This document shows positions 4,700 to 55,149 of a stretch of DNA of 64,000 nt, in pieces (the stretch's first letter is position 1; the number at the start of each line of letters is the position of its first letter). The notes below the pieces were generated by a model. That model was not told the origin of the DNA and ran no database searches. It saw only the letters and a list, made by a program, of their open reading frames with translations. The DNA lies in NCBI RefSeq assembly GCF_001447785.1, contig NW_015166495.1:36113-100112 (forward strand), given 5' to 3'. Both the position numbers and the translations under genes were made by a program. The stretch is from Gekko japonicus (taxonomy: Eukaryota).

Positions 4700-7600
4700 T
4701 TGGATAGGACAGTCCAAAGTGTTCAATTTGGCTACGTCTCCCTATCTTAAGATACCTCTGGGTGTTCATGTGTTCTAGATGTCTCTTTCTATTTAGCATT
4801 TTATTTCTAAATACTGTTGACATGTGATGATTATAAAGAAATCACTGACCTTGCCTGTTGTTAAGACTCCGACAGAATCATTCTGCAGTCCTTTTGTGAT
4901 GGAGTTTCGCCACAGCTCGATCCCTGCAACTGGTTGCACACCAAGTGCCAGGTCAAAGAAGAACTCGTGCAGTATAAGCACCCACTCATGTGAACAGCTG
5001 TAAATGGGGGGAAACCCAAGTCTCGTCACTTGTCCAACTACAACTGGTGCAATATTCTAAGATAGTGAGGCTGGTACTCTTTTAGGACTAAAGGAAACCA
5101 GTTTCTCTGACAGGAACTCTTATAATTCCAAAAGCAGAGGATGTCAAATATCATCTGACCCCTCCTGTTATCATCCTGTTACCTCTTTGTTAGTATCTAT
5201 ACCATGGTCTTTAATCTTCGAGGACACAGATTGATAACTGCCCTGGTTTACCTAAGGTAGGATACTTATAATCTGCAATCCTTTATGGGGTCTAGCCCGT
5301 TCTGCCTTTACTTTTCTAACACCAAGGCACCATTGTAATAGTTGTGACACGGTCCGATCAGCATCATTGAAGCCTTACGTTTGTAATTTTAATCTTGATT
5401 TTATTGCTTTATATTAAATGTTGTAACCCGCCCTGAGCTCACTTGCAGGAAGGGTGGGATAGAAATTGAATCAATCAATCAATCAATCAAATAAATAAAT
5501 AAAAGAACATATAGGATGGATCTATCAGTTGGTATTAGCTTTGAGAGCCAACTGGAACGTCCATATTTGGAAGCTTTGGACACTAGCCCCAGAGCAGAAA
5601 CAACCTCCTGTAATTTCTCAAATTTATGTCTAAATTGAATCCAATGACTGCCAAGGGTTATTCTGGCTCTCTCCTTCCTGAAAAGGGGGGTTAATTTTTG
5701 CGGGCCACTACTGGAAACAGAGCTGCGGTGGCTCAAGTGGTTAAAACGCTGAACTGCAGGCTGTGGAAGGTCGGTAGTTTGGCAGTTCGATACCCATGTG
5801 TGCCGCATGACGGAGTGAGCTCCCGTCTCTAGTTCCAGCTCCTGCCAACCTAGCAGTTCGAAAGCAAGAAATTGCAAGTAGATAAATAGGTAATGATCTA
5901 CGTATAAGCAATTTTTTTGATGCACATGGAAGACCAGGCATCCTCAATCCAAGTTTTTGCCAAACTTTCTCCCTAAACCTCAGCTGGGATAAAAACTCCA
6001 AAAAAACTCCAAAATACTCCAAAAGGCGAGATGCCAATTCTGAGTTACGACTATTAAAATTTCAAAGTCTAAGCATCTCAAAGTGATTTTTTGGATTAAT
6101 TATATTTTCACATAGATCTTCGCAGATTTGGACAAATGGGGTCTTAATGGCAAATGGCACAATCACTTTTGGAATGACCATTTTTTAGATGCACATTGAA
6201 GACTGGGCATCCTCAGTCAAAGTTTTTGCCAAACTTCTTCCCTGAGCTTCAGCTAGAAAAAACTCCCCTATATACTCCAAGTGGTGAGATCCGAATTCTG
6301 ATTTATGACTCTAATAAGATTTCAAAGTCTAACCACTTCAAAGTAATCTTTGGATTAATTATATTTTCACACAGAACTTCATAGATTTGTACATCTTGAT
6401 GGCAGATGCCCCAGTCGCTTTTGGAATCATTAGCGGAGGGAATGTTAATTTTTTTTTTGCAAATCTGCCCGATACAATTGTGAATGAACTCAAAAACTCT
6501 GGAATACGTTCTGCAAATGAGTCTTATATTCTGGAACTTAAAAACAAAATAAAGATACCTTATGTCTTACTTCATCTTCTATTTTGTTGCAACTGAAAGT
6601 TTCAAGCAAAATCTAGGATGGTTTCACCAAAGCTGTTATATTCTATCCATGACCATGTTAAAAAGCTATAATTCCATTCTGGAGATCACAATTGTCTTTG
6701 GGAGCCCAGAGGACGACATCCCATGGAGACAATTAGCCAAGAGCAGAAACTCAAATAAGAAACTCGAAGTTGCATCACTTCAGATTTAACCAGTTAATGG
6801 GGACATTTCTCCCGATGCCTTCAAAATCCAAAAGGTGGTAAAGGGTTTCATTCCAGTCCCCAAGCCCTGATACAAAGTTTAGGTGGTTTTTTCCCCCAGA
6901 TCATCATTATCAGGATATCATCTTCATCTTCATCTTTCCCTCCCAGAATTAGAATTCCCAATGAAACTTAAGAGAAATGAAAAACTCATGGATTCCTATG
7001 CATACAAAATATAGAAGTTAAAAATATAATGACCTGGATTCACTGGAAATTCCCACGGACAGCAGGGATTTCTATCTGTGGGGTGTGAGTTTCTTGTCCC
7101 TAGCATTCTGCTGAGGGTCCAAATGCCTCTTTGAATGCTGGTCCTTGTGGACGGGGAACCTCCAGGAACAGAGGGGAGGGACTGGAAGTCTGTAGTCGGA
7201 GAAGGATGTGAAAAGGTCCCCTCCTATCAGCAGAAATCCACACAGGATTCATCCTTTGATAAGGTTATCAAAATATTTCATGGGGGGGGATTTGGTGGTG
7301 ATGGAAGGTGAGGTCAAGACAAAGCTAGGTTACGGTGACGTCTTAGGGTTTTCAGGGCAAGAGACATTCAGAGGTGGTTTGCAATTGCCTGCCTCTTTGG
7401 CATGACCCTGGTATTCCTTTGGTGGTCTCCCATCAAAATCCTAGCCAGGGCCGACCCTGTTTACCTTCTGAGATCTGAAGAGATCAGGCTAACCTGATCT
7501 ATCCAGTTTGAGGGGGAATTTATAGACAGCCCTGGCTCTTTGGCTTGGAAATGGAGATGAGCACCGCAACCCTAGAGTTGGATTTGACTGGCTTTCGAGC

Positions 7601-7830
7601 AAGGGAAACCTTTACCTTTACTTATTCCTCCCCCCTCCCCCGCTCTGTGGTTTCTGTAGGTTCTTGTTCACATTTGCTAAAGAGAAATCTTTCATATATC
7701 ACATTTCTGTTAAGTTCCAGATGCTTTTGCAGGGCTTCTTATGATTTGAAGGGATGTTTGCTATCTGCTGCTGGTATATCTCGATGTTGCTGGAGTAAGT
7801 AAGATTTCCTTTCAGTTCATAATTAAGCTA
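4700..7830 (-). mobile_element. Ancient degenerate Gypsy relic, copy upstream of OR-A (RT, PR and gag fragments)
   Basis: Blocks are paralogous to those upstream of the other ORs. Minus-strand remnants include VPFAIK, GIELW/GIKL and a gag-like block at ~7640-7800. Internal ~260-bp tandem duplication (~5920-6185 and ~6186-6410). Confidence 0.65.
5720..5895 (+). mobile_element. Sauria SINE, 5' part (a 3' part lies at ~7525-7620)
   Basis: Near-identical to the 5' half of 15309-15652. Confidence 0.7.
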
Positions 7831-10763: not shown

Positions 10764-12423
10764 TCATTCCTCTGCTTTCCTCCCAATCAGTCTCCAAAAG
10801 GCTCTCTTCACAACCCTGTTTCTCAAGCTATAGATCAGGGGGTTGAGCATTGGGGTCACAATCGCATAAAAAACAGCCACCATTTTGTCCCTATCTGTGA
10901 ACGTCTTGGTTTGAGGCTTCAGGTATGCAGACAAGGTGGTTCCATAAAAAATGCCCACCACAGCCAGATGAGAGCCACAGGTGGATAAAGCTTTTCCCCG
11001 GGCTGAGCGGATGCGCAAGACAGCCAGACCAATGCGCCCATATGTCACCAGGATAAAGGTAAAGGGGAACAGAAGAGTGAAGACACACGTTATCTGCCAG
11101 CTAAGCCCATTGAGGTGAGTGTCAGAGCAGGCCAATTTCAACACTGCCTGGACCTCACATATAAAATGATTCACCACATTGCGGTAACAAAAGTGAACTG
11201 GCTGGCTGAAAAGAACGACGGCGGTCAAGACAAAAGAGCTGCACCACAGGCTGACGGCCACTCCAACACACACCTTTCTATTCATAATCAAGGTATAGCG
11301 TAGAGGGCTGCATATTGCCACAAAGCGGTCGTAAGCCATGACAGCTAGCATGAAGCACTCCGTGAATGCCAAAGAAGTTGTTGTTCAGTCGCACAGTCGA
11401 GTCCGACTCTTCGCGACCCCATGGACGAGCTCTCTCCAGGCCTTCCGGTCTTCTGCCGTCCTCTGAAGTTGGCTCAACTTCATGTTCGTTGCATCGATGA
11501 CACTGTCTAACCATCTCATCCTTTGCCGTCCCCGTCTTCTTTGACCTTCAATCTTTCCAAGCATCAGGGTCTTCTCCAGTGAGTGCTCCCTTCTCATTTG
11601 GTGGCCAAAGTATCTGAGCTTCAGTTTCATTATCTGGCCTTCCAGGGAACAGTCAGGGTTGATTTCTTTGAGGATTGACTGATTTGTTCTTCTTGCAGTC
11701 CAAGGGACTCTCAAGAGTCTCCTCCAGCACCATAGTTCAAAAGAATCTATTCTTCGGCGCTCGGCCTTCCTTATAGTCCAGCTCTCGCAGCCATACATGA
11801 CTACTGGGAATACCATTGCTTTGACCATGCGGACTTTTGTTGGCAGGGTGATGCCTCTACTTTTTATCATGCTGTTTAGGTTCGCCATCGCTTTCCTCCC
11901 AAGGAGCAGGCGTCTTTTAATTTCATGGCTGCAGTCACAGTCTGCGGTGATCTGGGATCCCAGGAACGTGAAGTCTGTCACTACTTCCACAGCTTCCCCT
12001 TCTATTTGCCAAGGAGTGATGGGGCCGGATGCCATGATCTTAGTTTTTTTGATGTTGAGCTTCAAGCCCACTTTTGCGCTCTCCTCTTTTACTCTGAGCC
12101 AAAGAAGTACCGATGGTCATTTGTGCGAAACAGCTGCCCAGAGGGATGATGGGCTTGTCTTTGATACAATGAGCCAGCATCTGTGGGACGGCGACAGTGA
12201 TATAGCAGATGTCAATGAAAGCGAGGTTGCTGAGGAAGAAATACATGGGTGTGTGGAGGTGCGAATCCACCACCGTCAGCACCACGATGAGACCATTCCC
12301 AGCTACGGTGGCTGCATACGTGACTACGAAAAAGACGAACAAGGCAACACGCACATGGGGTTGTCTGGAGAGGCCCAGGAGAACAAACTCGGTCACTGTG
12401 GTTCTGTTATCCCAATCGTCCAT
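10764..12423 (-). pseudogene. Olfactory receptor disrupted by a Bov-B LINE insertion (OR-B)
   Basis: The N-half (MDDWDNRTT...MTIGTSLA) and C-half (FTECFMLAVMAYDRF...GRKAEE) are separated by a LINE. TSD GCCAAAGAAGT at 11368-11378 and 12098-12108. Removing 730 bp restores a 930-bp in-frame ORF. Confidence 0.93.
11379..12097 (-). mobile_element. Bov-B (RTE clade) LINE, 5'-truncated
   Basis: Open RT C-terminal ORF (GLKLNIKKTKIM, YGCESWT, ELWCWRRLLRVPWTARR, LKLRYFGH, GRQRMRWLD), a (CAA)n tail and an 11-bp TSD. Confidence 0.93.
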
Positions 12424-12622
12424 ATTTCCTGTAACAGGGAAATTGAGAATCATCGTATCATCTGCATGCGATTTCACCCTGCACACATGTTTACTCATCC
12501 GTTTGTTAAATTTTAAATTGGCGATTCAGATGAATCACGGTTGGCCCTGCTTAACTTCTGAGATCTGACACGATTGGGCTTGCCTGGGCAATCCAGGCCA
12601 GGGCTACAATGAAAACTTTATT

Positions 12623-12918: not shown

Positions 12919-15110
12919 AATAGATGAATCTAATTTTAATAATTTAATAATCTGCATCTCTAGAAAAAGCATGCAGAAGCTAGAAAAGATATTAAATTAT
13001 AGTGAGGAGGAGATCTTTAACCAACTGAAACTGGGTAATTCATTCCAAATACGCATTACTTTTCATATTGATTGTTTCCCATTGTTTGGTTTCTACCATA
13101 CAGGGACCATTTTCTTGCCGAGACATTTGAGAAAATTATTACCCTGGTCTGCAGCGAATGTGGGCAAGCTGCTCATACTGTGTCCCAAGTTAGTTGAGGT
13201 ATTTCGTGTTTCAAGGGTGGGAGGGAGAAGAATGGTTGATTGTAGACTTCACCAGACTTATTGAATGTTCAGTCAGGGCCAAACTAGACACGGCATTTTT
13301 TCGACAGTCAGGTCTGGGTAGCCCCAGCTGAGAAGGAGGGTGGGGCGGGTTTTTTTGGCACCATTTCAGCTCGGGAAAATGGTGCGGAGAGGAGTCAAGA
13401 GCCCCTTCTTCTCCTGCATACTGCAGTTCAGAGCCAGATTGGGAACTCCCTCATTTTAAAAGAGATATCCCTCACATCTGTTGTGTGGCTGCAGAGAGAA
13501 TGAGTTGGATCTGGGGAAAGTGGACCCAATCCTAGCTTCAGGCCATGCTATGGAGACAGACTCCAGTCTAAACCCATTGAATATAACAATGGGGGAAACT
13601 CTGTTTATCCTGCCTGATGCTTAAGCAATATTCTGTCTCTGAAAACTTATTCAAAAACATCACTTTGTTTCTATAGGTATGTGGATGCACTATGTGACTC
13701 CATTAATACCAGACAAACGTTCTGACGCATAAAGGCAACTTCTACTGAATCCGATGCTTGGCCTAGAACAGAGATCTTTCACATCATCTATTATAACTGG
13801 AAACTTTTTAAAGTGGAGATGCCAGGGACTGAACCCGGGGCCTGCTGCAAACAAAGCAGATGCTCTACCACTGCCCCACCCCTCGCTATCATCAAGAGTG
13901 AATGAATTTTATTGTTACAGCGCATAGCCAGCAATTATCATCAAGAGAAAAAGAACATCATTCGCTGTCCTCAAAGTGGTGAGATGAATTAATTCTTAAT
14001 TAGCTATGAATTCTGTGTTGTCCTGTTTTGTTTTGTTTTTAAAAATCTTATCTTGTGTAATGAATACTGAGGATCTCTGGGTTCCAGTTCTCTAGCAAAA
14101 AAGGGGGGGAAGTAAACAACAGCACTTCTGTCCCCTGACATACATTTGAGAGCATTATAAAGTGACTGATGCCCCACTCAAAAGAAAGAAATAAACACCA
14201 CAGTTATATTCAAGTACAGTAGTGGCGGAGGAAGAGAAGGAGATTGGGTTTATACCCTCTCCTTTACTACCCGAAGAAGTCTCAGAGCGGCTTACAATTT
14301 CCTTTCCCTTCCCCTCCCTACAACAGATGCCCTGTGAAGTAGGTAGGCCTGAGAGAGCTCTTTCGAGAACTGCTCATGAGAGAACAGCTCTGAAAGAACT
14401 TGTGACTGACCCAAGGTCACCCCAGCAGCTGTATGTGGAGGAGTGGGGAATCAAACTCGGTTCTCCCAGATTAGAGTCCATGCTCCGAACCACTACACCA
14501 AATGGGCTCTCCTGTAGAGACCAGCTAGAGTTTCAGGGTAGTTGAGAGTCAATGCTCCCTTCGTCACAGGATGTGGTTCTCTAAAGTGCTACTGGATTCG
14601 AATCTAACTGTTCCCCTCTGAAACTATAAACACCACAGTTAAATTAAATAAAGTTCCTTTAATTAATTAAAATTATTGACAATAATTCATAAGTAATTAA
14701 TTATTTTAGGTAAGCTAGAGCAGGATGCTGAAGAGGATGCCCAGTGGGTTTGCGAGAATTTGAGAAGTCCCACCTCAGCTTTAAGTATTTAGCCACTAAC
14801 GTATCAGCTCTTCTCTTGTCTCTGCCTGTACATCAAAAAAATGTACTGAGAGATGCCATTGATCAAGGCCATTCCCCTACATTGGTCAGCATGAAGATTC
14901 AGGAGTCAACCAGCAGCACTGAGAAAGTATCTTTCCCAGACTCTTCAATTAGAGAGCCCAAAAGCGTCCAGTCTGGATACATCTCCCTATCCTAAGATAC
15001 TTGAGGGTGTCTACATGTTTTAGGCACCTCCTTGTAACTGGCCTTTAATTTCTAAATACTTTTGGTATCTCATTAATTAAAAAGCGGTCCCTGACCTCAT
15101 CAGTTTTTAA

Positions 15111-15946
15111 CAAGGGACAACAAGAAACAACTGTGAGCTGAATTCCCCGCAGAAGTAAATCCAAAAGGAGACTTCAACACAGTGAAATGCACATGTAATC
15201 AGAAATGAATCTATACATATAATCCATCATTGGAAAATACAGACGTTCACAGGATCCATAGAAGGAAAAAAAAACAAAGTCCAGAGTAGATAGCCAACAC
15301 TTTTCCTAGGCTCAAGTGGTTAAGACGCTGAACTGCAGGCTGTGGAAGGTCGGTAGTTCAGTAGTTCAAGACCCGAGTGTGCCGCATGACGGAGTGAGCT
15401 CCCATCTCTACTTCCAGCTCCTGCCAACCTAGCAGTTCGAAAGCAAGAAATTGCAAGTAGATAAATAGGTACCACTTCGGTGGGAAGGTAACAGCGTTCC
15501 ATGTGCCTTGGTGTTTAGTCATGCCGGCCACATGACCACAGAAACGTCTTCGGACAGCGCTGGCTCTTCAGCTTTGAAACAGAGATGAGCACCGCAACCC
15601 TAGAGTCAGATTCGACTGGCTTTCGAGCAAGGGAACCTTTACCTTTACCTTTATGCAGTTTCAAACTTCTGGTCCTTCCTCAGGAACAAAGAACAACATT
15701 AGGAAGTCTCATTCCAATTTCTTTACAGGACAATACTATTCAGTTTCTTTATGGGCCAGTTCTCCTAAGCTTTAATATGCACCTCTCAAGGTTGCTTCTA
15801 TGGATCCTGTGAACGTCTGTATTTTCCAATGATGGATTATATGTATAGATTCATTTCTGATTACATGTGCATTTTACTTTGTTGAAGTCTCCTTTTGGAT
15901 TTACTTCTGCGGGGAATTCAGCTCACAGTTGTTTCTTGTTGTCCCT
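15111..15946. repeat. Element with 152-bp inverted arms and 16-bp flanking direct repeats; contains a Sauria SINE
   Basis: 15113-15264 is the reverse complement of 15795-15946 (about 2 mismatches). CCTCATCAGTTTTTAA at 15095-15110 and 15944-15959. Confidence 0.8.
15309..15652 (+). mobile_element. Sauria SINE
   Basis: tRNA-like head GGCTCAAGTGGTTAA, body shared with 32276-32627, (ACCTTT)n tail. Confidence 0.8.
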
Positions 15947-16824
15947 CATCAGTTTTTAAGACATTGGCAGAATCATTCTGTGGTCCCTTTATGATGGAGC
16001 TTCACCACAGCTTAATCCGTGCATCTGTTCGCATCAGCGACATGAGAGGTCAAAGAAGAACTCATGCAGTGTAAGCACCGACTCATCTGAATAGCTGTAA
16101 AGGGGGGAGGGAATCAAGTCTCCTCACTTGCAGAAGCACAACTGGCCCAATATCCTAAGACAGCAATAATGGTTCCCCCTTAGGGGAAAAAAATAACATT
16201 AATTTCTCTGACAGGAACTCCAGCTGTTCCATCAGGGAAAGACAATAATTTTAAATAGGGGTATTAAACAAAACATTGGAACCTGATTTCAGTTACTCAT
16301 ATTCTACTTCACTGTCCTATGTTTCGTAAGATTCGTCAGCAATATCTTGATCCTGCTATTTCTAACCTTTCTGGTTCTCCAGAAAGAATTGCCCAGTATT
16401 TACTTGCTGATAAATCCTCTCGACTGATGGAATTAGTGGCTGAGTACTTGGCTATAGTATTGCACAACAGCTATCCTTTTCTAGGTAAAGCCAATGAATA
16501 ATTGTCTGTTTTTGCTTTTAGGCACTGTTTTCTCGATATTACTCTAATTATCCTTTTAGATTGTACTTTTTATCTGATTTTATTTACTTAGACCCTGTTT
16601 GTATCTAATTCTAATTTACCCTCATATGCCATTAAAGGTTTTGAATTTGATTTCAAAAAAGATAGGATGAGAATCGTTTTTTGAATCATTAGCAGTTGTA
16701 ATGCTAATATCTTTGCAAATCCACCCAACACGTGAACGAACTCAAAAGCTATGAACTATATTCTGCAGACATCATGTGAATGGGCCTTGTTTTCTGAAAT
16801 TAAAAAGGAAAGATGCCTCATGGC

Positions 16825-17136
16825 CAGGGGTCTTGTTGTAGAAAAAGAGCTGCCGGAGCTCATTAGCATAACTCATTAGCATAACTTATTTGCATATGCC
16901 ACGCCCCCTGACATCACCGGAAGTGACAGAAGGCCACACCCCCTGACATCACCGGAAGTGTGTCAGAAGGCCCGGCTACTTACCCTCCTGCTTCATCCTC
17001 ATTCCCAAACGGAATGAGGATCGAAGAGAGGGCGGGGTAAAGAAGGGGGCGGGGCTTCACCACGTGACCGCCCCGCCCCCTAGAGGTTCTCTTCCGGAGC
17101 TCCGTACCTGAGAGCTCCCCCCCGACTAGAGCCCTG
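16825..17136. mobile_element. hAT-type non-autonomous DNA transposon
   Basis: CAGGG...CCCTG ends; 8-bp TSD CTCATGGC at 16817-16824 and 17137-17144; tandem CTCATTAGCAT motifs. Confidence 0.85.
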
Positions 17137-17517
17137 CTCATGGCTCTTACTTCATTTTCATCTTCTATTTTGTTGCAATGAAGGGCGTCAAGCAAAATCC
17201 AGGATGGTTTCATTGATGCGGTTATATTCTATTCATGACCATTCAAAGAGGCGAAATTCTATTCTGAAGATCACAACTGTCTTTGGAAAACCAAAGGGAC
17301 CACCTCCCATGGAGACAATTAACAAAGGAGCAGAAGTTAAGATTAACAACCTGAGGTTGCATCACTAAAGTACTCATTTCAGATTTAACCAGTTAATGGG
17401 GACATTTCTCTAGATGCCTTAAAAATGCACAAGGTGATGGGGTGTGAATTCTGCCTTTAACAAGATTTCAAACTCAAAGTCCACTTTTAATGATAAATGA
17501 ACAAACTTGGAGCTCAG

Positions 17518-17622
17518 TGGCACCTTTAAGATCAACGAAGTTTAATTCAGATACCTGAAGAAGTGTGCATCTACACAAGAGCTTATACCCAGAATAAAAC
17601 TTTGTTCGTCTTAAAGGTGCCA
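17518..17622. mobile_element. Penelope-like terminal hairpin fragment
   Basis: TGGCACCTTTAAGA...TCTTAAAGGTGCCA inverted ends enclosing CTGAAGAAGTGTGCAT..CAC. Related ends at ~10395-10470, 30103-30175, 31245-31390, 44873-45058, 50560-50637 and 63976-64000. Confidence 0.6.
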
Positions 17623-18158
17623 TTAGACTCCAACTTTGTGGTGTGAATCTATCTTAATAGCAAAAGGTGCATTTGCTTTTGGAATCATTAGCAGATGTAA
17701 TGCTAATACCTTTTTGCAAATCCATCCAACACGGTTATGAAGGGACTCAAAAACTCTGAAATATGGTCTACAAACATCATGTGAATGGGCCTTATTTTCT
17801 GAAATCAGAAAATAAAAATGCCTCATGGTTCTTACGTAATCGTCACCTTCTCTTTTGTTGCAGCCAAGGATTTCAAGCAAGATCTTGGATCACTTCATCA
17901 ATGTGGTTATATTCTATCCATGACCATTTGAAAAGGTATAATTCTGTTCCGAGGATCACAGGTGTCTTTGAGAACCCAGAGGGACCACCTCCCATGGAGA
18001 CAACTTGCAAAGAAGAGTGGAGCCCAAGTTCAAAGTCAACAACTTAAAGTCACATCAGTAGGGTATTCACTTCAAATTTAACAAGTTAAGGGAGGCATTA
18101 GTCTAAATGCCTTAATAATACATAAGAAGAGGAAGGGATTCAGTCCTTGAGTTCTGAT

Positions 18159-18521
18159 CAGGGGTTGCTTCGTAGAAAAAGAGCTAGGGGAACTCATTAG
18201 CATACCTCATTAGCATATGCCACACCCCCTGACATCACTGGAAGTGTGTCATAAGGCCACACACCCCACCCCCAATGGTTCTGGCCGGCGGGAGTGCAAG
18301 GAAGCCCCGCGAAGGCCCTCCCTGGCCCCAGGCAGGCAGGGGTGGGGAGAGGCAGGGAGGAAGGAACTTACCCTCCCTCTTCTCCTGCCTCCTCCTGGCT
18401 GAATGAGGGCCGGAAGCGGGGCGGCCGGAAGCAGGGGGCGGGGCTTCGTCATGTGCCCCGCCCCCGTACCTCACCTGGGGGAGCTGCGATCCCCCGCGAT
18501 CCCCCCCCGAAATGACCTCTG
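18159..18521. mobile_element. hAT-type non-autonomous DNA transposon (related to 16825-17136)
   Basis: 8-bp TSD GTTCTGAT at 18151-18158 and 18522-18529; shared left end. Confidence 0.85.
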
Positions 18522-40776: not shown

Positions 40777-41679
40777 AAAAAACAACCTGTGTAATAGATA
40801 CTGAGATCTGTATATCCCATTATATGTCAAAAGAGTTAATCCAACAATTTTGCAAATTTGCACACAATTGTTTTCCCTTAACTCATTTTCTATAGGAGTG
40901 CATGTGTATGGTTGCGATCCGATGTGCCTTTAGATCCAATATAGCTGCTGATGCCAGAGGGATCTAAAGTGCATGATCAGACAGCAACATCTGGGAAATG
41001 TTCTGCATTCATCAGCACCCTGTTCTGCCCCGCCCCTGAAATGGAGTAAAAAGACACTGGGAAAAGTCTGGTTCTAACGCTTGCCGATGGATTTTCCATA
41101 GTCTAATCACTCAAGTGTGCTCTCAGGCTGTTGGGATGGTCTGCTCATTTCATCCCAACTGGGCATCTTTTTTTTTTGCTCGCTCAGCGATATGCGCATA
41201 ACCACATAATCATCCCCATCTCTAGGCCAGCTTTGAAAACAAACAGGAAAGGGAGAGATCTTTGTCAGGCGACCACGGCTCACTGTGAAACAAAGGGATC
41301 ACAGTGCTTCATGGAAGGATCGGCGAGTGGTCAAAGTGGAGACTCAACTCCCAGAAGTTGGAAAGCACATGAGCAAAAAACTGCACCCTCGTTTAGGCGC
41401 ATGTGCAAAAGCAGGCAATCCCCCTCGCCTGTCCATGCCATCTGATTGTACAGTGATGGGATGAGCCCACAGTGAAATGGATTATACTGGGATGTCTGAT
41501 CGAGCGACTCCGTTTCCAATACCAACGGATGAAATAGGAATGCCTTCTGACTGCGCCAAATGGCATGCCTGACCGCAGCCTATGTGTGTTTTAATTTTAT
41601 CTCCTATTCAGCACTTTATTTCTATATACCCCTTTTGATTATTAAAACAACAAAAAAGGCAAATTTCCACTAACCGCAT

Positions 41680-43790
41680 TGGTTGTTAGGAGTGTGACGG
41701 AATCATTCTGTTGCCTCTCTGCGATGGAGTTTCACCATAGCTTGATTCCTGCAGACATCTGAAGCAAAGTGTCAGGTCACAGAACCGTTCATGCATTATC
41801 CACAAAAGCAGCAACACTTGTGAATAGCTGAGGGGGGGGGCAAGTCTCTTTACTTGCAGAACTGCAGCTAACACAAACTTCTAAGACAATACCCTCTTTG
41901 GGCTAAATGATACCAACTTCTCTGATTGGAAATTCAGATATTCTAAAAGCAGGGGAAGAGGATAACTTAAAGTAGAAGTATCAAGCAATCAGTTTCCAGC
42001 TCTGATTCATTGGTTTAAATATATTTAGCTTGATTTTCTCCTCTCTCCTTACCAAGTTAGGACCCACACTTTTAAAAAAGAAAGATCTGAACATTAGATA
42101 CATGTGTACTTTTCATATCTAATTACTTTTTAAAGAACAAAGTATCCCATGATTAATTACACCTGTCTCCTACAATAGAACAAAATTGTCCTTTATATTT
42201 CCTGAAAAATCCATTGTTTTTACAGTCTTAGGCAGGAAACAAAAACTGGACATTTGCCGAGTTAAAAAATAAAATAAAATCATAATACTATCCACCCTGA
42301 CCTGAACAGTTCAGGCTGGCCTTATGTCATCGTACTGGCCTGGTCTTGTCATATCTTGGAAGCTAAGTTAGTACTTGGTTAGTACTTGGATGGGAGATCA
42401 TGAAGAAAGTCTAGGGTTGCTACACAAAGGCAGGCACCCACTTGTTTGTCTCTTGCCTTGAAAACCCTACGGGGTCACTGTAAGTCAGGTGCAACTTGGC
42501 AGCACTATTCTACTCCTAACGTTATCTATTATATATTAGTTTAGTTTCATATGATTTATTTATTTATGTCCCACCTTCTTCACCAATGAGGACTCAATGT
42601 GGGTTACCTTGGGTCAGTCACAAGCTCTGGCACAGCTGTTCCTGAAAGTGGAGTGTGTTTAAAAGAGAATTTGAGTACGTGTCAAGAGAACGCTAGTGTG
42701 GTCTCGAATCATGGGCAGAACATCTGTTAATCTCTGAAGTGTGGAGGCAGGGACAACCCTAGCTGTTTGCTGTGCTGTAATCATGAATCTTGGTTCAACC
42801 GGTGCTTTGTGCAAATCTATCTCCGTTTATAGAAGTCAAAATAACACCAATGGTGAGTTTTAGATTCCAACAGTGCCATACTAAGCAGAGTTACATCCTT
42901 CTCTGCTTATTTATTATTATTATTTATTAATTATATTTATACCCCGCCCATCCTGCGAACAGGTTCAGGGCGGCTAACAAAAGCGGGTAATACCACAAGT
43001 TGAGACAATGTCTGAATGTCCTTAAGTGATCTTTGAATTAACTATACTTTTGTCTGTAGTTTCATACATTTGAGCAGAACTATTTTTTGGAATTAATAAA
43101 AGGTTTATACCTTTTAGGTTATCTATCTGCCTAATATGATCGAGACTATGCTTAGAACCAATGTTCCCGCTAAGCTGAGTTAGTGTGAGCTAGCTCACAG
43201 TTTTTTAACCTCCCGCTCACACTTTTTTGTCTTAGCTCAGGAAGGATGGCTCCGGAGCAAACTAATTTATACAGCAGCCAAATTGCTCGCTCACAACTTT
43301 AATGCCAGTAGCTCACAAAGTAGGATTTTTGCTCACAAGACTCCACAGCTTAGAGGGAACATTTCTTAGAACCTAGGAGGTACACACGGCAAATATCCGC
43401 TATATGAATGGGCATCATTTTCTGAACCTTATAAAAAGAAGATCTTTGATTATTCTTACTCAGTCTTCATCTGGAAAAGACGAAAACACTACTGTGTTGT
43501 GGTCAGCACATTGTTTTTAAGCAAAATCCAGGATGAGTCCAATGACTGTTTTTGAAGGTATGATCTCATTCTGAAGATCAGAACTTCACAACTGTCCTTG
43601 GAAATCCAGAGGGACCACCTCCCATGGAGACAATTAGCTAAGAAGAGCAGAGCAGAAGCTGAAAGTATTAACTTGATGTTACTCCACTGAGGTTCTCACC
43701 AGTTAATGGAAACATTTCTGTCGATATGTTGGAAGGATATAACGAAGTAAAGGAATTCACTCTGGTCTTTGTGGTCTGCTGAAACTCCAG
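41680..43790 (-). mobile_element. Ancient Gypsy relic, copy upstream of OR-D
   Basis: RT-like block at ~41690-41980 and PR-like block at ~43380-43790, both paralogous to the other copies. Confidence 0.6.
43159..43364. mobile_element. hAT-type MITE
   Basis: AATGTTCCC/GGGAACATT TIRs; 8-bp TSD CTTAGAAC at 43151-43158 and 43365-43372. Confidence 0.85.
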
Positions 43791-45105: not shown

Positions 45106-48100
45106 TGTTAGATCGCGCTAACAAAGGACTCGTACAGTGATTCAGCAAGTGATTCAGCTTTATTGGAAGTAACGAGCAAGCACTAACTCAGTAAGAAACC
45201 AGAACAGAAAACAGTGGGAGCTTATGCTCCTTTTAAACATAACCGGGCTAATGTAGCCACGCCTATTTACAAATAACAACCAATGAGATTGCTAGAATAA
45301 AGACCAATGGGAGTCTTTCCCTCCTAGGGAATGGTATCGTTCTGATTGGTCGCTGTTACGAAGCGACCAATAGGAAGTTCGCTCAGAGGAGCCCTGGTCT
45401 GGCTCGAAGCTTAACAGGGGAGTCCTATGAGGTGATTCATGTAATCATTTCAATACATTACAATTCCTCCCCCCTAAGTTAAGCCATCATCCCAATTGTT
45501 TTATTATTTACAAACATGCAATCAACCTTTGTACATCAGTTATTCCAACAGTATTTACACTCATAGTCCTTCAGATAAGTCGGCATTTGCCGCGAACGCT
45601 GGGACCTGCGGAGCGGTGCAGGCTCCACGGGCAGACAAGGTTGTGGGTCAGAGTGGGGTTCACTACAGCCTGGATCAGGCACAGACTCGACTGGGATTTC
45701 AGCCCCGCACACAGGGTTCTGCCCTGACTCGGGGACAGTACCGGGCAGTTCGGTACTCACCGCCTGCTCTGGGGGTGTCCACTCGACATCAGGGGATTCA
45801 GCCGTCGGAGAGTCAGCGCTGTCCCTAGCCCAACGTCTCCTTAACTGATCTATGTGGCGCCGCCATATTCGACCGTCAGCTAACTGCACCACATACATTC
45901 GAGTACCCACAGAGTCGGATATAACCCCAGGAAGCCACAAGTGCCCGTTTGCATAATTTCGTGCGAAAACCTTGTCCCCTTTTTCAAACATGCGCACCTT
46001 CGGTTGCGCAGTGGTACGCTCGGACTGATCTTCTGATAGGTCTGGGTGCATACGGTTCAAACGGGTCGTGAGTCTCCGCCCCATTAACAATTCGGCCGGA
46101 CTACGGCCTGTAGCACTACAGGGGGTGGTGTGCTGCAGCAAAAGAAAGGAGCCCAGCCTCTGGCTCCAGTCCCCTTCGTCCATTTTACCCAGGGCCTCTT
46201 TGGCCGTCCTGACCATCCGTTCGGCTTGGCCATTAGATGCCGGATGGAAAGGGGCCGAAGTCATTTGGCGTATGCCATTACTCGTGAGGAAGAGCCTAAA
46301 TTCCTCAGACACAAATTGAGGCCCGTTGTCACTGACGATGACGTCAGGCAACCCGTGGGTGGCAAAAAGTCGGCGGAGCGCATGGATCACAGCAAGTGAT
46401 GTGGTCGATTTCATATGCACGACCTCCAGCCATTTGGACATAGCGTCCACCACAATTAGGAACATTTGCCCTTGGAGAGGGCCAGCAAAATCTATATGCA
46501 ATCTGGCCCAGGGTTTACCAGATGACTCCCAGCCTTGGGGTGTAGCTTGTGGGGGATCGGGTCTGACTTGCTGGCATTTGGGACACCCTCGTACCCATTC
46601 TTCGATCTCTTTGTCCAGCCCCGGCCACCAGACATACCCTCTGGCCAACGCTTTGGTGTGTACCATACCGGGGTGACCCTCGTGCAGCGACTCTAACACT
46701 CTCGTCCTGAGTTTGTCAGGAACCACCACCCTGTTCCCCCATAATACACAGCCCTTAGAAATGGATAGTTCATTTTGACGGCTTTTGTAAGGGCCGAACT
46801 CCGGTTCAACGCTTCCAACCGGCCACCCCCTCCAAACCCAGTTTAATACTCGGGACAGCACGCTATCCTTGGCCGTGTGTGCTGCAATGTCCCTGGATGA
46901 TACCGGGGGTCGAGGAAGCTCCTCAATTGCCAAGACCTCACAGGCGGGGGCAGGGTCTGCGCCAATGTCCGGCACCGGGCACCGGCTGAGGGCATCCGCA
47001 TGCCCAATCGCTTTCCCAGGCCGGTGCTCTAAGTCAAAATCATAAGCCTGCAAAAATATCGCCCATCTAAGCATGCGTGGGGACATGATGTTTGGCAATT
47101 GCTTATCGGGCGCAAAAATCCCCAGTAGCGGCTTGTGGTCAGTGACCAGCAAAAATCGTCTGCCAAAAATAAAATCATGGAACTTTTTGACAGCCGCTAC
47201 CAACGCCAGACCCTCCTTGTCTATCTGGGCATAGTTCCGCTCTGCCGCAGATAGTGATCTAGAATAAAAAGCGATAGGCGCTTCGCTCCCATCAGGCATC
47301 AGATGGCTTAAAACTGCGCCTACTCCAAACGGTGAAGCGTCAGCAGCTAACACCAGGAGCTTGTGTTCATCATAATGCGTGAGTACGGCATTAGATGTCA
47401 GCAGCTCCTTGACTCCCACAAAAGCCTTTTCCTCGGCCTGCCCCCACTTCCATTTTGCCTCCTTGTGCAAAAGCGCGTGCAAAGGGGCCGCCACTGATGC
47501 CTTATGCGGTAAAAACGCATGATAAAAATTCAGGAGTCCTAAAAAGGATTGGAGCTCCTTCTTACTCACCGGCCTGGGGGCGTTTTGGATTGCAGATACC
47601 TTCTCATCCGTGGGGTGGACTCCCTCTGCGTCAATGCGAAACCCCAGGAAGTCCACACTTTCCACCCCGAGCGTGCATTTTGAGCGCTTAACTCTGAGGC
47701 CGGCATTTTGAAAACGCCTGAGGACCTCTTTAACCCGGTCCAGTAGTTCCTGTTCAGACCCGCCCGCAATCAGCACGTCGTCAAAATAGGGCACTGTGCC
47801 AGGTACCCCCCTTAGTAGACGTTCCATGAGGCCCTGAAAAATCCCAGGTGCTACGTTGACCCCGAATTGCAGCCTGTTCACTTTAAAAGCCCCTTGGTGG
47901 GTTACAATTGTTTGGGCCTCGGCAGCCTCCGGGGTGACAGGCAACTGCTGGTATGCCTGGGCCAGGTCAAATTTGGCGAAAATCTTGCCACCCCCCAGGG
48001 AAGCCAAAATGTGGCTTATTACCGGGACCGGGTACGAATGTTGCTGCAGCGCCTTGTTAATCGTACATTTGTAATCGGCGCATAGTCGTATGGACCCATC

Positions 48101-50074
48101 TGATTTGACAGGGGTTACGATCGGGGTCTCCCATTTGCTGTATGGTACTGGCTCTAAAACCCCTTGCTCAACTAGTTTGTCAATCTCTTTTTCCACCTTA
48201 TGTTTGAGAGACACAGGTACTTTCCGATACTTCAACCTAATAGGTTTGACTGACGGATCTAAGTCAAACGCAACCGGGGGGCCCTTGTACCTTCCCAACC
48301 CTTCGGCAAATACATCAGGGAACAGGTCGTACAGCATGCCCCATTTATTTTCAGACATCCTGTTAATCCCAGAAATACCGATGCCCAATGGCTCAAACCA
48401 ATCTAACCCTAGCAGGTTAACCCGGTCTCCCTCTGCAATCAGGAATGACAGTTTAACACATTTCCCCTTATACTCAACAGTAACAGAGTCCCGTCCGGCC
48501 AAGGGAATTCGGTTGCCCTGGAAGTCGGACACTCTGGTTCCCGCAGGCTGGAGCCGCCGCCGGCTTCGGTTCGGGAACAACTGGCGCCAGGACGCGGCAG
48601 AAATCACCGTCACGGACGATCCTGAGTCCACCTCCATTGTACAGGGTCGGCCGTCGAGGAGTGGAGTCACGGTGATCTTGCCCTGGCTGCTGGTGCGATT
48701 TACGGCCGATGCGCTCGACAAGGTCGCCGTCAACTGGCAGCTTGCTTCCGATGCTGAGGAACGGGTCTTGCCTTGGGTGCTGACTGGAGTGCCCCTCTGC
48801 GCTGACCGGTTGTTAGTTGAGGGATCCTTCTTCGCTGATCTGCAGACTCTGGCCAGATGACCACGCCGCCCACACGCTCTGCAGTCGACATCACGAGCCC
48901 AACAGGAGCCGCGCTGGTGCTTCCCGCCACAACCGGAGCAAGGCTTGACGTTGGTAGTCTTCGCTGGGGTCCGCTTGCCTCGAACCGCGTTGACGTCATC
49001 ATCCGCGTCTTCGCCCTCGCTGTCTCGTTGAGCGTGTATACTGGGCTCTGCCACCCGCTGGCGGACCTCCTTCGTGGACTTCTCCGCTGCTTCCGCGGCC
49101 ACGGCCTCTTCGTAGGCCACTGCCCAGGTCAGGGTGGTGCGGGCGAACAGCCTCTGTTGCAGCCTTTCATCTTTGAGACCGCAGACGAGACGGTCTCTGA
49201 GGGCTTCCTCCACGTTGTGGAAATTACATGGCCGTGCGGCTTTGCGAAGGGCCGCCACGAAATCTGCGATGGTCTCGCCTCCGGCCTGGTTCCGCTTGTA
49301 AAAAGCGTGCCGGCAGGCGATCTCCGACGGTTGTGGAGAATAGTGAGCCTTAAGCTTCTCCGTGATGTCAGCGTAGGTGACAGTCTTTATATCAGTTGGG
49401 GCCACCAACGACCTGGCTATGTCGAAGGTCCCCTTCCCGCAGGAACTCAGGAGGCATGCTCGTTTCTTCGCCTCATCGGTGATGTCGTGGGTCTCCAGAT
49501 GGAACTCGAACCTGGACAGGTAGGAGTCCCAGTCTTCTGAGGAGGGTTCGAAGCACTCGAACTTCTGGCTTCCAGCCATCGGGGGAGACTTGGGCACCGG
49601 AGCTGGTGGCGCCTCCGCCGGATCGGCTGCTGTGCTCTGCCCGCTTTCTTCCGAGTCCGAAGTGTGGATGTCCGCAGGGCTGCCTACCTGCTCTAACATC
49701 CCATCCTCGTCGCCAATTGTTAGATCGCGCTAACAAAGGACTCGTACAGTGATTCAGCAAGTGATTCAGCTTTATTGGAAGTAACGAGCAAGCACTAACT
49801 CAGTAAGAAACCAGAACAGAAAACAGTGGGAGCTTATGCTCCTTTTAAACATAACCGGGCTAATGTAGCCACGCCTATTTACAAATAACAACCAATGAGA
49901 TCGCTAGAATAAAGACCAATGGGAGTCTTTCCCTCCTAGGGAATGGTATCGTTCTGATTGGTCGCTGTTACGAAGCGACCAATAGGAAGTTCGCTCAGAG
50001 GAGCCCTGGTCTGGCTCGAAGCTTAACAGGGGAGTCCTATGAGGTGATTCATGTAATCATTTCAATACATTACA
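45106..50074 (-). mobile_element. Full-length young Gypsy/Ty3 (Mag-like) LTR retrotransposon
   Basis: 357-bp TG..CA LTRs at 45106-45462 and 49718-50074. TSD GATGG at 45101-45105 and 50075-50079. PBS TGGCGACGAGGATGGGAT (49698-49715) is complementary to the tRNA-Ser(GCU) 3' end. PPT at ~45463-45477. Confidence 0.96.
45536..49699 (-). CDS. Gypsy gag-pol polyprotein (gag, 2 Cys/His knuckles, protease, RT, RNase H, integrase)
   Basis: Uninterrupted 1387-aa ORF: CSGCGGKHQRGSC and CRACGRRGHLARVC knuckles, VDSGS protease, YFDD RT, DASPFGVGAVL RNase H, HEGH..CPKC and D,D(35)E integrase. No env. Confidence 0.95.
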   Translation of the reverse strand: MLEQVGSPADIHTSDSEESGQSTAADPAEAPPAPVPKSPPMAGSQKFECFEPSSEDWDSYLSRFEFHLETHDITDEAKKRACLLSSCGKGTFDIARSLVAPTDIKTVTYADITEKLKAHYSPQPSEIACRHAFYKRNQAGGETIADFVAALRKAARPCNFHNVEEALRDRLVCGLKDERLQQRLFARTTLTWAVAYEEAVAAEAAEKSTKEVRQRVAEPSIHAQRDSEGEDADDDVNAVRGKRTPAKTTNVKPCSGCGGKHQRGSCWARDVDCRACGRRGHLARVCRSAKKDPSTNNRSAQRGTPVSTQGKTRSSASEASCQLTATLSSASAVNRTSSQGKITVTPLLDGRPCTMEVDSGSSVTVISAASWRQLFPNRSRRRLQPAGTRVSDFQGNRIPLAGRDSVTVEYKGKCVKLSFLIAEGDRVNLLGLDWFEPLGIGISGINRMSENKWGMLYDLFPDVFAEGLGRYKGPPVAFDLDPSVKPIRLKYRKVPVSLKHKVEKEIDKLVEQGVLEPVPYSKWETPIVTPVKSDGSIRLCADYKCTINKALQQHSYPVPVISHILASLGGGKIFAKFDLAQAYQQLPVTPEAAEAQTIVTHQGAFKVNRLQFGVNVAPGIFQGLMERLLRGVPGTVPYFDDVLIAGGSEQELLDRVKEVLRRFQNAGLRVKRSKCTLGVESVDFLGFRIDAEGVHPTDEKVSAIQNAPRPVSKKELQSFLGLLNFYHAFLPHKASVAAPLHALLHKEAKWKWGQAEEKAFVGVKELLTSNAVLTHYDEHKLLVLAADASPFGVGAVLSHLMPDGSEAPIAFYSRSLSAAERNYAQIDKEGLALVAAVKKFHDFIFGRRFLLVTDHKPLLGIFAPDKQLPNIMSPRMLRWAIFLQAYDFDLEHRPGKAIGHADALSRCPVPDIGADPAPACEVLAIEELPRPPVSSRDIAAHTAKDSVLSRVLNWVWRGWPVGSVEPEFGPYKSRQNELSISKGCVLWGNRVVVPDKLRTRVLESLHEGHPGMVHTKALARGYVWWPGLDKEIEEWVRGCPKCQQVRPDPPQATPQGWESSGKPWARLHIDFAGPLQGQMFLIVVDAMSKWLEVVHMKSTTSLAVIHALRRLFATHGLPDVIVSDNGPQFVSEEFRLFLTSNGIRQMTSAPFHPASNGQAERMVRTAKEALGKMDEGDWSQRLGSFLLLQHTTPCSATGRSPAELLMGRRLTTRLNRMHPDLSEDQSERTTAQPKVRMFEKGDKVFARNYANGHLWLPGVISDSVGTRMYVVQLADGRIWRRHIDQLRRRWARDSADSPTAESPDVEWTPPEQAVSTELPGTVPESGQNPVCGAEIPVESVPDPGCSEPHSDPQPCLPVEPAPLRRSQRSRQMPTYLKDYECKYCWNN

Positions 50075-51441
50075 GATGGAGTCCTGTGGCACTTGGACAG
50101 AACCCCTTTCCAGTTCTAACAGATGGGGAGGGGGAGGAAACCTAAAAGCACAGCTTCTATTCTTTATTAATGGAAGGGAGCAAGAGTCCAGTAATACCTT
50201 TATGACTAACAAAATTAGCAGCAGAGTAATAGCTTTTGTGATTCACTTCTCACTTCAGATACAGCTAGAATGTGAGTCCATCTGTCCTTATATCTTGGAG
50301 AGTGAAGTGATTTCAGATGCCAAACAACAATAGCAGGGATTGGTAATAAGAAACCTAGGTCTCAGTCCAGTCCAGGAGAATGCATTGTCTTGAGCTTCAT
50401 TATCAGTTGCAATTCAGCAGTCTCTCTAATCTCCCTTTGAAATTCCTTTGTAGGAGAACTGCTATTCTTAGGTCAGCAACTGAATGTCCTGGAAGGTTAA
50501 AATGTCCCCCCACTGGTTTTTGAATGTTGTGGTTTCTAATAGCAGTAGAAAGACTAAGAGTCCAGTAGCACCTTAAAGACTAACAACATTTGTGGTAGGG
50601 TATGTGCTTTCATGACTCACTGCTCACTTCTTCAGACTTATTTCCATTCATTCTTTGCATCTTCCTGGACTGGATACCTCCTGTACCAAACTGAGACCTA
50701 GGTTTCCTTGTGTTACATTCTATGGCACGTGTGGCTTGGCCAGAAAAAGTGACATTTATGACAGATCCGGCCCTTGTAACAAATCAGTTCAACACGTCTG
50801 TTCTAGAGAGTAAAAGGAAGTGGAAATACATCTCCAGTTCAACAGTCAGAAGATGAAAAGAGGAGTTACAGTTGTTACCGGTTTATTCCAGAGTTGCCTG
50901 TAATAAAGCCTGAGTTAATACATGATGTCTTTGAATTAAGACATGGTGTCAGAAGTGCAAGTACATTTCTAGAAGAAGAAGTGATAATAACAATCTGAGA
51001 AAAAAACTGATAATGACAATCTAAAAAAACAAACCCTGGAGTTTGCACCTGAGCTCAGGGACTGGAGTGAATCCCTTCACCACCTTTTGCATTTTAAAAG
51101 TGTCTGGAGAAATGTCCCTGTTAACTTGTTAGATTCGAAGTGATGTGACTTTAAGTTGCCAATTTGAGCTTCTGCTCTACTCTTTATGGATAATTGTCTC
51201 CATGGGATGCGATCCTTCTGGGTTCCATAGACAATTGTGATCTTCAAAATGAAATTGTACTTTTTTAAATGGTCATGGATAGAATATAATTGCTTCGGTG
51301 AAACCATCCTGGATTTTCCTTGAAACCTTTGACTGCAACAATACAGAAGATGAAGATGATGTAAGAACCATGCGGCATTCTTCTTTTTTAATATCAGAAG
51401 ATAAAGGCCCGTTCTGAATGGATTTGCAGCATATATACTTG

Positions 51442-52361: not shown

Positions 52362-52980
52362 TAAGAACACAAGAGAAGCCATGTCGGATCAGGCCAGTGG
52401 CCCATCCGGTCCAACACTCTGTATCACACAGTGGCCAAAACCCAGGTGCCAACAGGAGGTCCAGCAGCAGGGCCAGAACTCCAGAAGCCCCCCCAGTGTT
52501 GCCCCCCAAGCACCAAGAATGCAGAGCATCACTGCCCCAGACATAGTGTTCCTTCTATACCTTGTGGCTAACAGCCACTGATGGACCTCTGCTCCATATG
52601 CTTATCCAATCCCCTCTTGAAGCTGCCACCACTTCCTGCGGCAGTGAATTCCATGTTCTAATTACTCTGAGGGTGAAGAAGTACTTTCTTTTATGTCTTC
52701 TAAGCCTATTGCTCATTGATTCCGTTGAGTGGCCACAAGTTCTTGTATTGTGAGAAAGCGAGAAATGTGCTACTTTCTCTACCTTCTCTATCCCAAGCAT
52801 AATTTTGTAAGCCTCTATCATGTCACCCCTCAGTCATCATTTCTATGAGCTAAAAAACTGCTTTAACCTTTCTTCATGGGGAAGGTGTTCGATCCCCTCA
52901 ATCGTTTTAGTTGCCCTTTTCCGCACCTTTTCCAATGCTATCGTATCTTTTTTGAGATACGGTGACCAGAACTGTACACA
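52362..52980 (-). mobile_element. CR1-type LINE 3' fragment
   Basis: MIEAYKIM..RKYFFTLRVIRTWNSLPQEVV. Further CR1 3' ends at ~4144-4600 and ~63770-63940 ((TTCTATGA)n tails), and short related pieces at 29163-29360 and 43947-44190. Confidence 0.8.
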
Positions 52981-55149
52981 GCCTGGTTGACCTCAGTGGG
53001 AACTTAAGTAAGCATGAATGAGACTGAACACTGTATATGTTTTCAATGCAGAACTTATTGTGTGGTTGGGAAATCATTTTGTTCACGTTTTTGGTATAGG
53101 GATGAGGAGTGGAAGGATTTAATGTTGTGACAAAGAAAGCATTTTGGAGAGAGAAAAGCATACATCTCTTTGTGGTTTTTTAAAATGAAACATGGTATGT
53201 AACATGAAGATCAGTTACGAAAGGCTAGATGTCTGCCTCAGTATCCAGAAATATGATGCTACTTCAGATGCAGCTATATCAGGCCCTTGATATTGGGTTA
53301 TTAGTAACAACTATTGCTTCTACAGAGATTATTAATCAAAGGGCAGAAAACTGGCTAACCTAAGAGGCTAAACCAAATTTCCACTGATTTCAGCATTCTG
53401 CTTCCATCAGTGGCTAGCAAAAGCTGGCATTCATTTTTCAGGAGAAGCAGCAATAATACATCACATTCATTGCATCCGTTTCAGGGATAAACTTGAGATG
53501 TTGCATGAGGCTGCTTCTACTCCATGGCTGGTGTCCAGAGAGCTTCAGAATATGATAGTCACAGTTACCTGTGATCACTAACACCCACTGATAAACCCAT
53601 CCTATCTGTTGTTCGATACCCTGTTTAAACTACTCCTCTTTCCTGCATTTGGAATAGTTCCTGTCAGGGAAGCTGATACTGTTTTGTCCTAAGGGGGCAT
53701 CAGCATTGCTGTCTTACAATACTGGGCTGATTTCAGGTCTGGAACTGGTCCCCTCCCTCTTTACAGCTATTCACACGAGTTGGTGCTTATATTGCCTGAG
53801 TTCTTCTTTGACCTGGCACTTCCCTACAAATGGCCACAGGGATTAAGTTGTGGTGAAATGCCATCATAAAGGGATAGTAGAATGATTCTGTTGAAGCCTT
53901 AGCAACAGATGAGGTAAGTGATTCCTTTTTAATTATCATCATCATCAAGTTTATTGTATTAGCCATTGGCCATAACAAAACATAAATACAAACACAATCC
54001 GTATGCATCACATTAAGTTATCCCTTCACTAACTTGCGCTGAATCCTAGGCTTAATCTTATCTTTTTTGCCGCCAAAGCAAACAGGGACATTCTGCTGGT
54101 AACATAAACATCCATATCAGAGAGCAAAAAAACAACTAACTCCTGTTTTGAGAATCCATTGTGCAAAGGTAAAATAGGGTATATAAATCTCTGCCTAAGT
54201 GATTCGTGCCATGAGCATCTCAGTAAATAGTGCTCAATATCATCCACTTCGCCCAAACCACATTGACGGATTCTTAAGGCAACAGGTAAACCCATAAAAC
54301 GACCAACACAGACCATTTAGAAATACAATGCCAGATAGTACAAGTTCCCTAAAATACATGAACACCCAGAGGTATCTTAGGATAGCGAGATGGTTCCAAA
54401 CTGGACACTTTGGGCTCTCCAGTCCAAGTCCTGGGAAAGAGACTTTCTCAGTGCTTCTCGTTTCCCAATGAAACACAGGTAGATTTTGCTATTGAGCAAA
54501 ATTTAGCTACCTTCTCCGTAATCTGATGGTATTTATCTGCTAGGAGGACATTAAGATTTTTCTGTTCTTCCTGGGAATTTTTGTAGAATGGGGAAAAGCA
54601 GCTCATATCAAATTTCTATGTAAAGAGGACAATGTAGAAGAACGTGCCCTGTCAGTTCTACTTCTTGACTACTGCAGGGCAATTCCATTCAAAATACGGG
54701 CTTTTTGATGTCCTCCTAGCAGATAATGTTTTACACTTTGATGTTTAACAACTCACAAAGGAGAACATTAAATAGACCCTGAGAAAAAGCAAATCTTGTT
54801 TTCAGAGCTATAAGATTCCCCAAATAGTTTGCTGGCACAAATTGCTTATGCTCAGTATAATAGTATCTCCTGGCAATGCTGAAATGCTATTGTAGCTGTT
54901 TATCTTGAATTCTTTGGCTGATCACAGATGAGGTTTTTGTATAACATAAATTCATGAGATCCCTAGGTGAAAGCCCCATTTTCTGTAGCTTCAGATAGAG
55001 GAGATTTTTCTGCCTTGATTGATGAACGGGTTGACATATTTAATATTACAAGACACCTTAATACCCCCCTGGGTTAAGGCTCTATAGAGGAAAAACTCCC
55101 TTATTTTGCCCTCACAAAACAATATCTGTGTTGCCTTGCCTATGACAAG

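Follow-up and report, generated by a model that had tools for sequence, protein, structure and literature searches.

Olfactory receptor loci and their upstream blocks

Here, we analysed a stretch of 64,000 nucleotides from Gekko japonicus (hereafter the window), corresponding to bases 36113-100112 of the 267-kb contig NW_015166495.1 (G000:C6785), and the rest of this contig was also read. The window contains five olfactory receptor (OR) loci, and an initial annotation had proposed that each of these genes is preceded by the same fossil Gypsy retrotransposon, which was duplicated together with the gene and may supply its promoter. Our analysis points to an ordinary tandem expansion of ORs, in which a likely promoter and likely 5' exons form part of the copied unit and a decaying Gypsy 5' fragment is a passenger.

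Twenty-one OR loci were found on the contig. Those in the window, named A to E, extend over 1033-2034 (-), 10764-12525 (-, split), 24990-25979 (-), about 38740-39700 (-, broken) and 57055-58044 (+). OR-A, OR-C and OR-E have open frames, with intact coding exons at 1033-1968 (-), 24990-25925 (-) and 57109-58044 (+) and a splice acceptor predicted 5 nt upstream of the ATG at 1968, 25925 and 57109, respectively. OR-B and OR-D are broken: the coding sequence of OR-B (10764-12423, -) is interrupted by the 3' piece of a long interspersed nuclear element (LINE; about 11377-12098, with a target-site duplication), presumably of the RTE type, and an expansion of a short repeat (38886-38934) disrupts the frame of OR-D (38740-39692, -) close to the C-terminus. 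A sixth unit with the same upstream blocks, the intact OR-Z, lies just outside the window (G000:C6785 27893-33013; L003, L004); it has 86% amino-acid identity to OR-E and is the sister of OR-A. In the phylogenetic tree, Z, A, B, C, D and E form one OR clade, separate from the next-closest pair, X177 (intact) and Y108 (frameshifted).

Pairwise blastn revealed that the upstream regions of all five window ORs consist of colinear blocks with 62-80% identity, arranged in the OR sense and inverted at E, in agreement with the recurrence described initially. When the genome was searched with these blocks, 9/10 matches of the block referred to here as the core were on this contig, the tenth being a 399-bp duplicate of unit A. 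The exon-2 (proximal) block had 8/11 matches on this contig, and the block between gag and core had 4/7, with three weak ones elsewhere. The gag block and the block containing the long terminal repeat (LTR) and primer-binding site (PBS) had 23 and 22 matches, respectively, mostly on other contigs, and thus belong to a dispersed old family. The block that had been taken for protease (PR) and reverse transcriptase (RT) remnants is locus-specific and, judged from its sequence, resembles the promoter and first exon of an OR.

Two small contigs, L011 (C108456) and L035 (C39764), are 100% and 98% identical to parts of the upstream region of unit A and are likely allelic or duplicate assembly pieces. 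Upstream of OR-C, a 255-bp unit is present in several copies at about 95% identity (window 27189-28636).

Candidate promoter core and predicted non-coding exons

The core is present in 6/6 units of the clade. Predicted promoter cores together with exon 1 were placed at 6564-6754 (-) for OR-A, 17828-18026 (-) for OR-B (copy B1), 34327-34525 (-) for OR-C and 51171-51368 (+) for OR-E. A second tandem copy of the predicted core in OR-B (B2) lies at 17143-17336 (-), and that of OR-D (43453-43656, -) has its TATA-like box deleted and no old Gypsy upstream. Genome-wide, the core was covered by DNA and pattern searches, and the contig was covered by a profile built from the seven in-clade cores alone. 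Besides the cores themselves, this profile had just two significant matches on the contig, each on the strand of its OR: one 4.1 kb upstream of X177 (182206-182017, -; E 7e-9) and one 6.7 kb upstream of Y108 (102046-102190, +; E 1.5e-4).

Several short motifs recur within the core. The O/E-like sequence TTGTCTCCATGGGA is invariant in 7/7 in-clade cores (a run of 14; column-shuffle p 0.0012) and is adjoined by TAATTG in five of the seven; TAATTG, which is present in 7/9 cores overall, fits the homeodomain consensus lines printed in PMC3247239. About 85 nt past TTGTCTCCATGGGA stands the TATA-like box ATATAA (6/7 in-clade cores, deleted in D; 8/9 overall), and 70-80 nt beyond it follows a GTAAG donor (7/7; 9/9 overall). 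In OR-A, the pair of TAATTG and O/E-like site lies near 6732, the TATA-like box near 6641 and the donor at 6570; the corresponding positions in OR-E are 51191-51207, about 51284 and 51361. All four elements (homeodomain site, O/E-like site, TATA-like box, GTAAG) recur in the cores of X177 and Y108. The distance from core to ATG is 3.9-8.6 kb.

Between X177 or Y108 and the clade, 52-61% of the four-fold sites are different (12 pairs), compared with 22-29% among the gag pieces themselves, and a profile of the old Gypsy family found no sequence of this family at either gene on the whole 267-kb contig. Since the core thus stands upstream of far older, Gypsy-free ORs, it predates the activity of the Gypsy family and does not derive from the insertion. 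The proposed Gypsy origin of the shared blocks is not supported, the bulk of the repeated upstream DNA being non-Gypsy.

The second shared block looks, from its splice-like signals, like a non-coding exon of 147-153 nt. A pyrimidine tract with a CAG acceptor is found in 5/5 units, followed 147-153 nt later by a GT donor in 4/4 measurable units; in OR-B the donor is displaced by insertions. Predicted exon 2 was placed at 4850-4997 (-) for OR-A (148 nt; pyrimidine tract and ACAG acceptor, GTCAGT donor), 30900-31046 (-) for OR-C (147 nt), 41675-41827 (-) for OR-D (153 nt) and 53767-53913 (+) for OR-E (147 nt; GTAAGT donor). In OR-B it spans 15096-16094 (-), interrupted by younger insertions, with its acceptor at 16101 and donor at about 15097. 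The CAG acceptor 5 nt before the ATG is common to all five coding exons.

Several results weigh against a promoter with two non-coding exons. The O/E-like site is degenerate, with 3/11 mismatches to the MatBase consensus printed in PMC3247239. Taken as wholes, the two blocks have no extra conservation over four-fold sites (difference 0.14-0.28): the core differs by p 0.11-0.36 and the exon-2 block by 0.24-0.35, and in the latter no significant invariant run was observed (p 0.35). The profile did not find the core upstream of 13/21 OR loci on the contig. In the available RNA data (one contig run and about 3-12% of the content of each of three raw runs, tissue unstated), depth was present on common repeats only, with none on the LTR, the core motifs, exon 2 or the 5' end of OR-E; no spliced read joined the predicted exons and no read covered the OR itself. 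With depth confined to common repeats, these runs say nothing about the promoter.

A divergence equal to that of neutral sites is what would be expected if the core were an unrecognised ancient repeat, or neutral DNA copied together with the gene, and the internal tandem duplication of about 265 bp after the core, together with the fact that genome DNA searches pass over very common words, could fit such an origin. We consider this unlikely, given that the core can still be aligned, with 48-65% identity, in front of ORs that are close to saturation at their silent sites and that the order of motif, TATA-like box and donor has been retained in 8/9 cores. The exact homeodomain plus O/E-like pattern, chosen after the cores had been seen and with four matches for its reversed control, also argues against it, occurring seven times in the 2.49-Gb genome and each time in one of these cores.

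Some features of individual cores were also observed. In the broken OR-B, the core is present twice together with a partial third piece (window 16673-18168, -), a tandem duplication of the predicted promoter. OR-D, also broken, is the sole copy whose core is without the TATA-like box, and its core has the longest in-clade branch (0.38 versus 0.004-0.19). The coding exons of OR-D and OR-E differ at 13.6% of four-fold sites but their cores by 35.5%, which hints at gene conversion between these inverted neighbours.

Extent and origin of the old Gypsy pieces

To delimit the Gypsy sequence, 11 dispersed regions (12 stretches) of the old family were fetched and a profile was built from nine dispersed copies. 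On the 267-kb contig this profile matched at units A, B, C and E only, so that the element precedes four of the five window ORs instead of every one, and no old-Gypsy sequence was found at unit D. The matches amount to 1295 bp across the window, or 5.2, 6.9, 5.2, 0 and 4.9% of the five intervals assigned to Gypsy in the initial annotation, from A to E.

Each unit has kept a different part of the element. Unit B is the most complete: LTR, PBS, leader and the start of gag (ATG at about 23523) lie at 23354-23836 (-), with a whole LTR of about 210 bp (23836-23628) and the PBS directly after it (23627-23614), followed by a middle gag piece (22730-22842, -), cut off by younger insertions, and a last one (19289-19341, -) that ends at a break common to unit C. 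Unit A has about residues 55-111 of gag (7640-7811, -) and unit C about residues 13-114 (35885-36183, -; 3' break common to B), both without LTR or PBS. In unit E, the 3' part of the LTR (about 140 bp), the PBS (50944-50957) and about 20 bp of leader are left (50803-50977, +), and gag is absent. No second (3') LTR or target-site duplication of the old Gypsy was found in any window unit.

The gag N-terminus was matched by natural Gypsy polyproteins at 36184-35886 (E 1e-19), 7810-7640 (6e-9), 23523-23422 (7e-7) and 22847-22749 (1e-4). Gag is therefore real upstream of A, B and C, as had been suggested, and missing from D and E; a homolog search with a 98-aa gag frame found none among 93 candidates. 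An LTR end followed by a tRNA-Leu-type PBS, noted twice before, was found again in units B and E (2/5 units): the PBS, TGGTGTCAGAAGTG, is complementary to the 3' end of the tRNA-Leu(CAG) of this genome, which was called by ARAGORN in 3/6 loci fetched for the pattern.

Neither PR nor RT remnants could be recognised in the blocks. Pfam yielded 0 families in 18/18 OR-sense frames, and 27 further frames, mostly of the opposite strand, gave three sub-threshold chance matches. Searches with 14 natural Gypsy polyproteins and their profile found no PR, RT, RNase H (RH) or integrase (INT) match in the blocks at E<=1; the same 14 polyproteins matched the cassette within gag residues 1-123 only and, as a positive control, the pol regions of dispersed loci at E down to 1e-62. 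When the decayed pol frames of the family itself were compared with the blocks, the best E value was 0.033, within the range of ten shuffles (0.006-0.38). The shared blocks had no match to the pol regions of the family by blastn, tblastx or tblastn, and the pol regions of dispersed copies matched one another at 70-80%. No match in the blocks was obtained by tblastn with the polyprotein of a young Gypsy element in the window, and a search of the PDB with one decayed frame returned chance matches only. With working positive controls, these searches rule out PR and RT remnants in the cassette. Because the polyproteins matched gag only, the proposed LTR-PBS-gag-PR-RT layout is reduced to LTR-PBS-5' gag, followed by non-Gypsy DNA.

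The positions at which the gag pieces stop are informative about their origin. In units B and C, gag breaks at the same base and continues into the same non-Gypsy flank, at a point where four dispersed copies run on in gag and a fifth is masked. Gag of unit A reaches the same residue and is then followed by a younger insertion, and all three end near residue 111-123 of natural polyproteins. This common end implies that one insertion preceded the duplications, and on this point the initial proposal, that an ancient insertion predates the OR expansion and travelled along with it, is upheld. In unit E, the leader after the PBS gives way within about 20 bp to the sequence immediately preceding the core; a deletion of about 1 kb would explain this junction.

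Separate insertions, at least for E apart from A, B and C, would account for the finding that the gag pieces of the window are scarcely closer to each other (difference 0.22-0.29, 4 pairs) than to dispersed copies (mean 0.258, 32 pairs; dispersed versus dispersed 0.277, 28 pairs), and E and B have no upstream junction in common. Two further results limit the preferred reading: the gag and LTR trees are star-like, such that a clade of window copies was neither shown nor rejected (p-AU, from the approximately unbiased test, 0.15 for gag and 0.23 for LTR), and at OR-Z a LINE-like insertion and a masked stretch stand where the Gypsy piece would be. The gag, LTR and core trees were all unresolved. 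However, independent insertions appear very improbable in view of the identical break and flank of B and C, the same orientation and position relative to the core in four units, the LTRs of B and E falling in the same 5-row subgroup of the tree (97/98 support), and the lack of any further copy of the old family on the 267 kb. Sequence distance by itself does not prove a single origin, and the simplest reading would be that the duplications followed the insertion closely.

The LTR was also considered as a source of the promoter or 5' untranslated region (UTR) exons of the clade, as suggested initially. It lies in the OR sense in B and E; of the two motifs noted before, AATAAA is present in both (23686 and 50902) and TATAA in B (23777) but not in E. 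In addition, the LTR end of the intact OR-E has come to lie, owing to a deletion, some 250 bp away from the core motif. Such a supply nevertheless seems very improbable. No LTR is present at A, C or D, and the sole whole LTR belongs to the broken OR-B, that of E being partial and without TATAA. The LTRs of B and E differ from each other by 0.338, compared with 0.348 and 0.338 from dispersed copies (9 pairs each). AATAAA is a poly(A) signal that dispersed copies also have, the predicted exons are not Gypsy-derived, and a complete older promoter-like core stands between LTR and OR. Given that the intact units A and C lack the LTR, and that its divergence equals that of dispersed copies, its motifs are unlikely to provide promoter or UTR for the clade. 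A local effect of the LTR may exist at OR-E, where its end and the core motif are about 250 bp apart.

Two other Gypsy sequences are present in the window. A young, unrelated element (45106-50074, -) lies between the upstream regions of OR-D and OR-E, with 357-bp TG..CA LTRs of 99.7% identity, a 5-bp target-site duplication and one 1397-aa frame containing Pfam protease, RT, RNase H and integrase. A third Gypsy gag fragment (23951-24733, +) is opposite to the ORs, between the 3' end of OR-C and the old LTR of unit B.

Proposed history and comparison with known systems

Taken together, the blocks are probably tandem copies of the whole upstream region of one OR, which likely comprises the promoter of this gene and two non-coding exons. 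The Gypsy scraps within the blocks are likely no more than passive remnants of one truncated insertion that preceded the duplications. According to this scenario, an old dispersed Ty3/Gypsy element left an LTR-PBS-5' gag fragment about 1 kb upstream of the core, in the OR orientation, with the remainder of the element absent. By homology, a unit that begins with the Gypsy fragment and extends past the OR into part of its 3' flank was then copied to six (Z, A, B, C, D and the inverted E), presumably through unequal crossing-over. Deletions and younger insertions subsequently took different parts of the fragment from each copy, and the core stayed in 6/6. The motifs and their conservation suggest a transcription start shortly downstream of the TATA-like box of the core, under a pair of homeodomain (Lhx2/Emx2-type) and O/E (Ebf-type) sites. 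Exon 1 with its GTAAG donor would be spliced to exon 2 of about 150 nt, and the latter to the acceptor located 5 nt upstream of the ATG, with no role for the LTR.

One more far-reaching version, which we regard as rather doubtful, is that the core carries a Lhx2/Ebf composite of the Greek Island type, otherwise a feature of mouse OR enhancers, placed inside a promoter and copied with each duplicate (doubled in OR-B), that the duplications may have been seeded by the Gypsy insertion, which the star-like trees would date to shortly before the burst, and that the LTR remnant within 250 bp of the core in OR-E may tune it. If true, an enhancer-like element of its own for each duplicate would raise the chance of this reptile OR clade being chosen.

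With the Gypsy part being a small decaying passenger, transposon co-option carries little weight in our preferred explanation of a copied upstream region. The fragment is useful as a marker, which dates and delimits one burst of OR duplication. The candidate promoter is a useful by-product of the analysis: comparison of paralogs yields a base-level prediction of a non-mammalian OR promoter and 5' exons with a mammal-like homeodomain and O/E logic.

The closest intact relatives of the dispersed family are Gypsy polyproteins annotated as K02A2.6-like, and we take the family to be of the Mag type. Its LTR is about 200 bp, and Pfam RT_RNaseH, Integrase_H2C2 and rve were detected in its decayed frames in 3/5 loci scanned, with the RT-RNaseH-integrase order found in L013/L014 and L018. 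The family resembles K02A2.6-like Ty3/Gypsy elements (matches in Branchiostoma, sturgeon and medaka) in its short LTR and tRNA-Leu PBS, in the single gag-pol frame with PR-RT-RH-INT order of dispersed copies, and in a gag N-terminus 44-59% identical to P0001. By contrast, all that is left in the window copies is the LTR, the PBS and about 115 codons from the start of gag, in fragments, and both pol and the 3' LTR are missing.

LTR-derived promoters of host genes exist, such as the LTR promoters of mammalian endogenous retroviruses. The locus is similar to them in having a sense-oriented LTR upstream of a gene, but here the LTR has been lost from most copies, excess conservation is absent and there is a separate, older promoter-like element. 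No paper on an OR and LTR duplication cassette or on squamate or reptile OR promoters was found among titles and abstract openings, a search that left most subscription journals uncovered and is weak evidence of absence; the accessible text of PMC10463633 and PMC11643329 added nothing specific.

According to the available text of PMC3247239, mouse OR promoters contain O/E and homeodomain sites and in some cases TATA sites, the mean distance between transcription start site and ATG is 4.2 kb, and OR duplications can take in the promoter region. The gecko units resemble such mammalian duplicates in their intronless coding exon, in predicted 5' non-coding exons located kilobases upstream, in the O/E-like, homeodomain and mostly present TATA-like sites, and in a duplicated unit that includes the likely promoter. 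They differ in belonging to a non-mammalian genome, in a start site that is predicted rather than mapped, and in a unit that also contains a piece of Gypsy, located about 1 kb further upstream than the core. Adjacent Lhx2 and Ebf sites, with the Ebf half often degenerate, form the composite motif of the mouse OR enhancers called Greek Islands in the portions available of PMC5608512 and PMC7804114. The homeodomain site directly beside an O/E-like site in 7/9 cores is similar to this motif by description, unscored, the motif being printed as a logo in PMC5608512 and its letters being absent also from the text of PMC11643329. Unlike the Greek Islands, where the composite is described as enriched in enhancers over promoters, the pair is located here in a promoter-like block bearing a TATA-like box and a splice donor.

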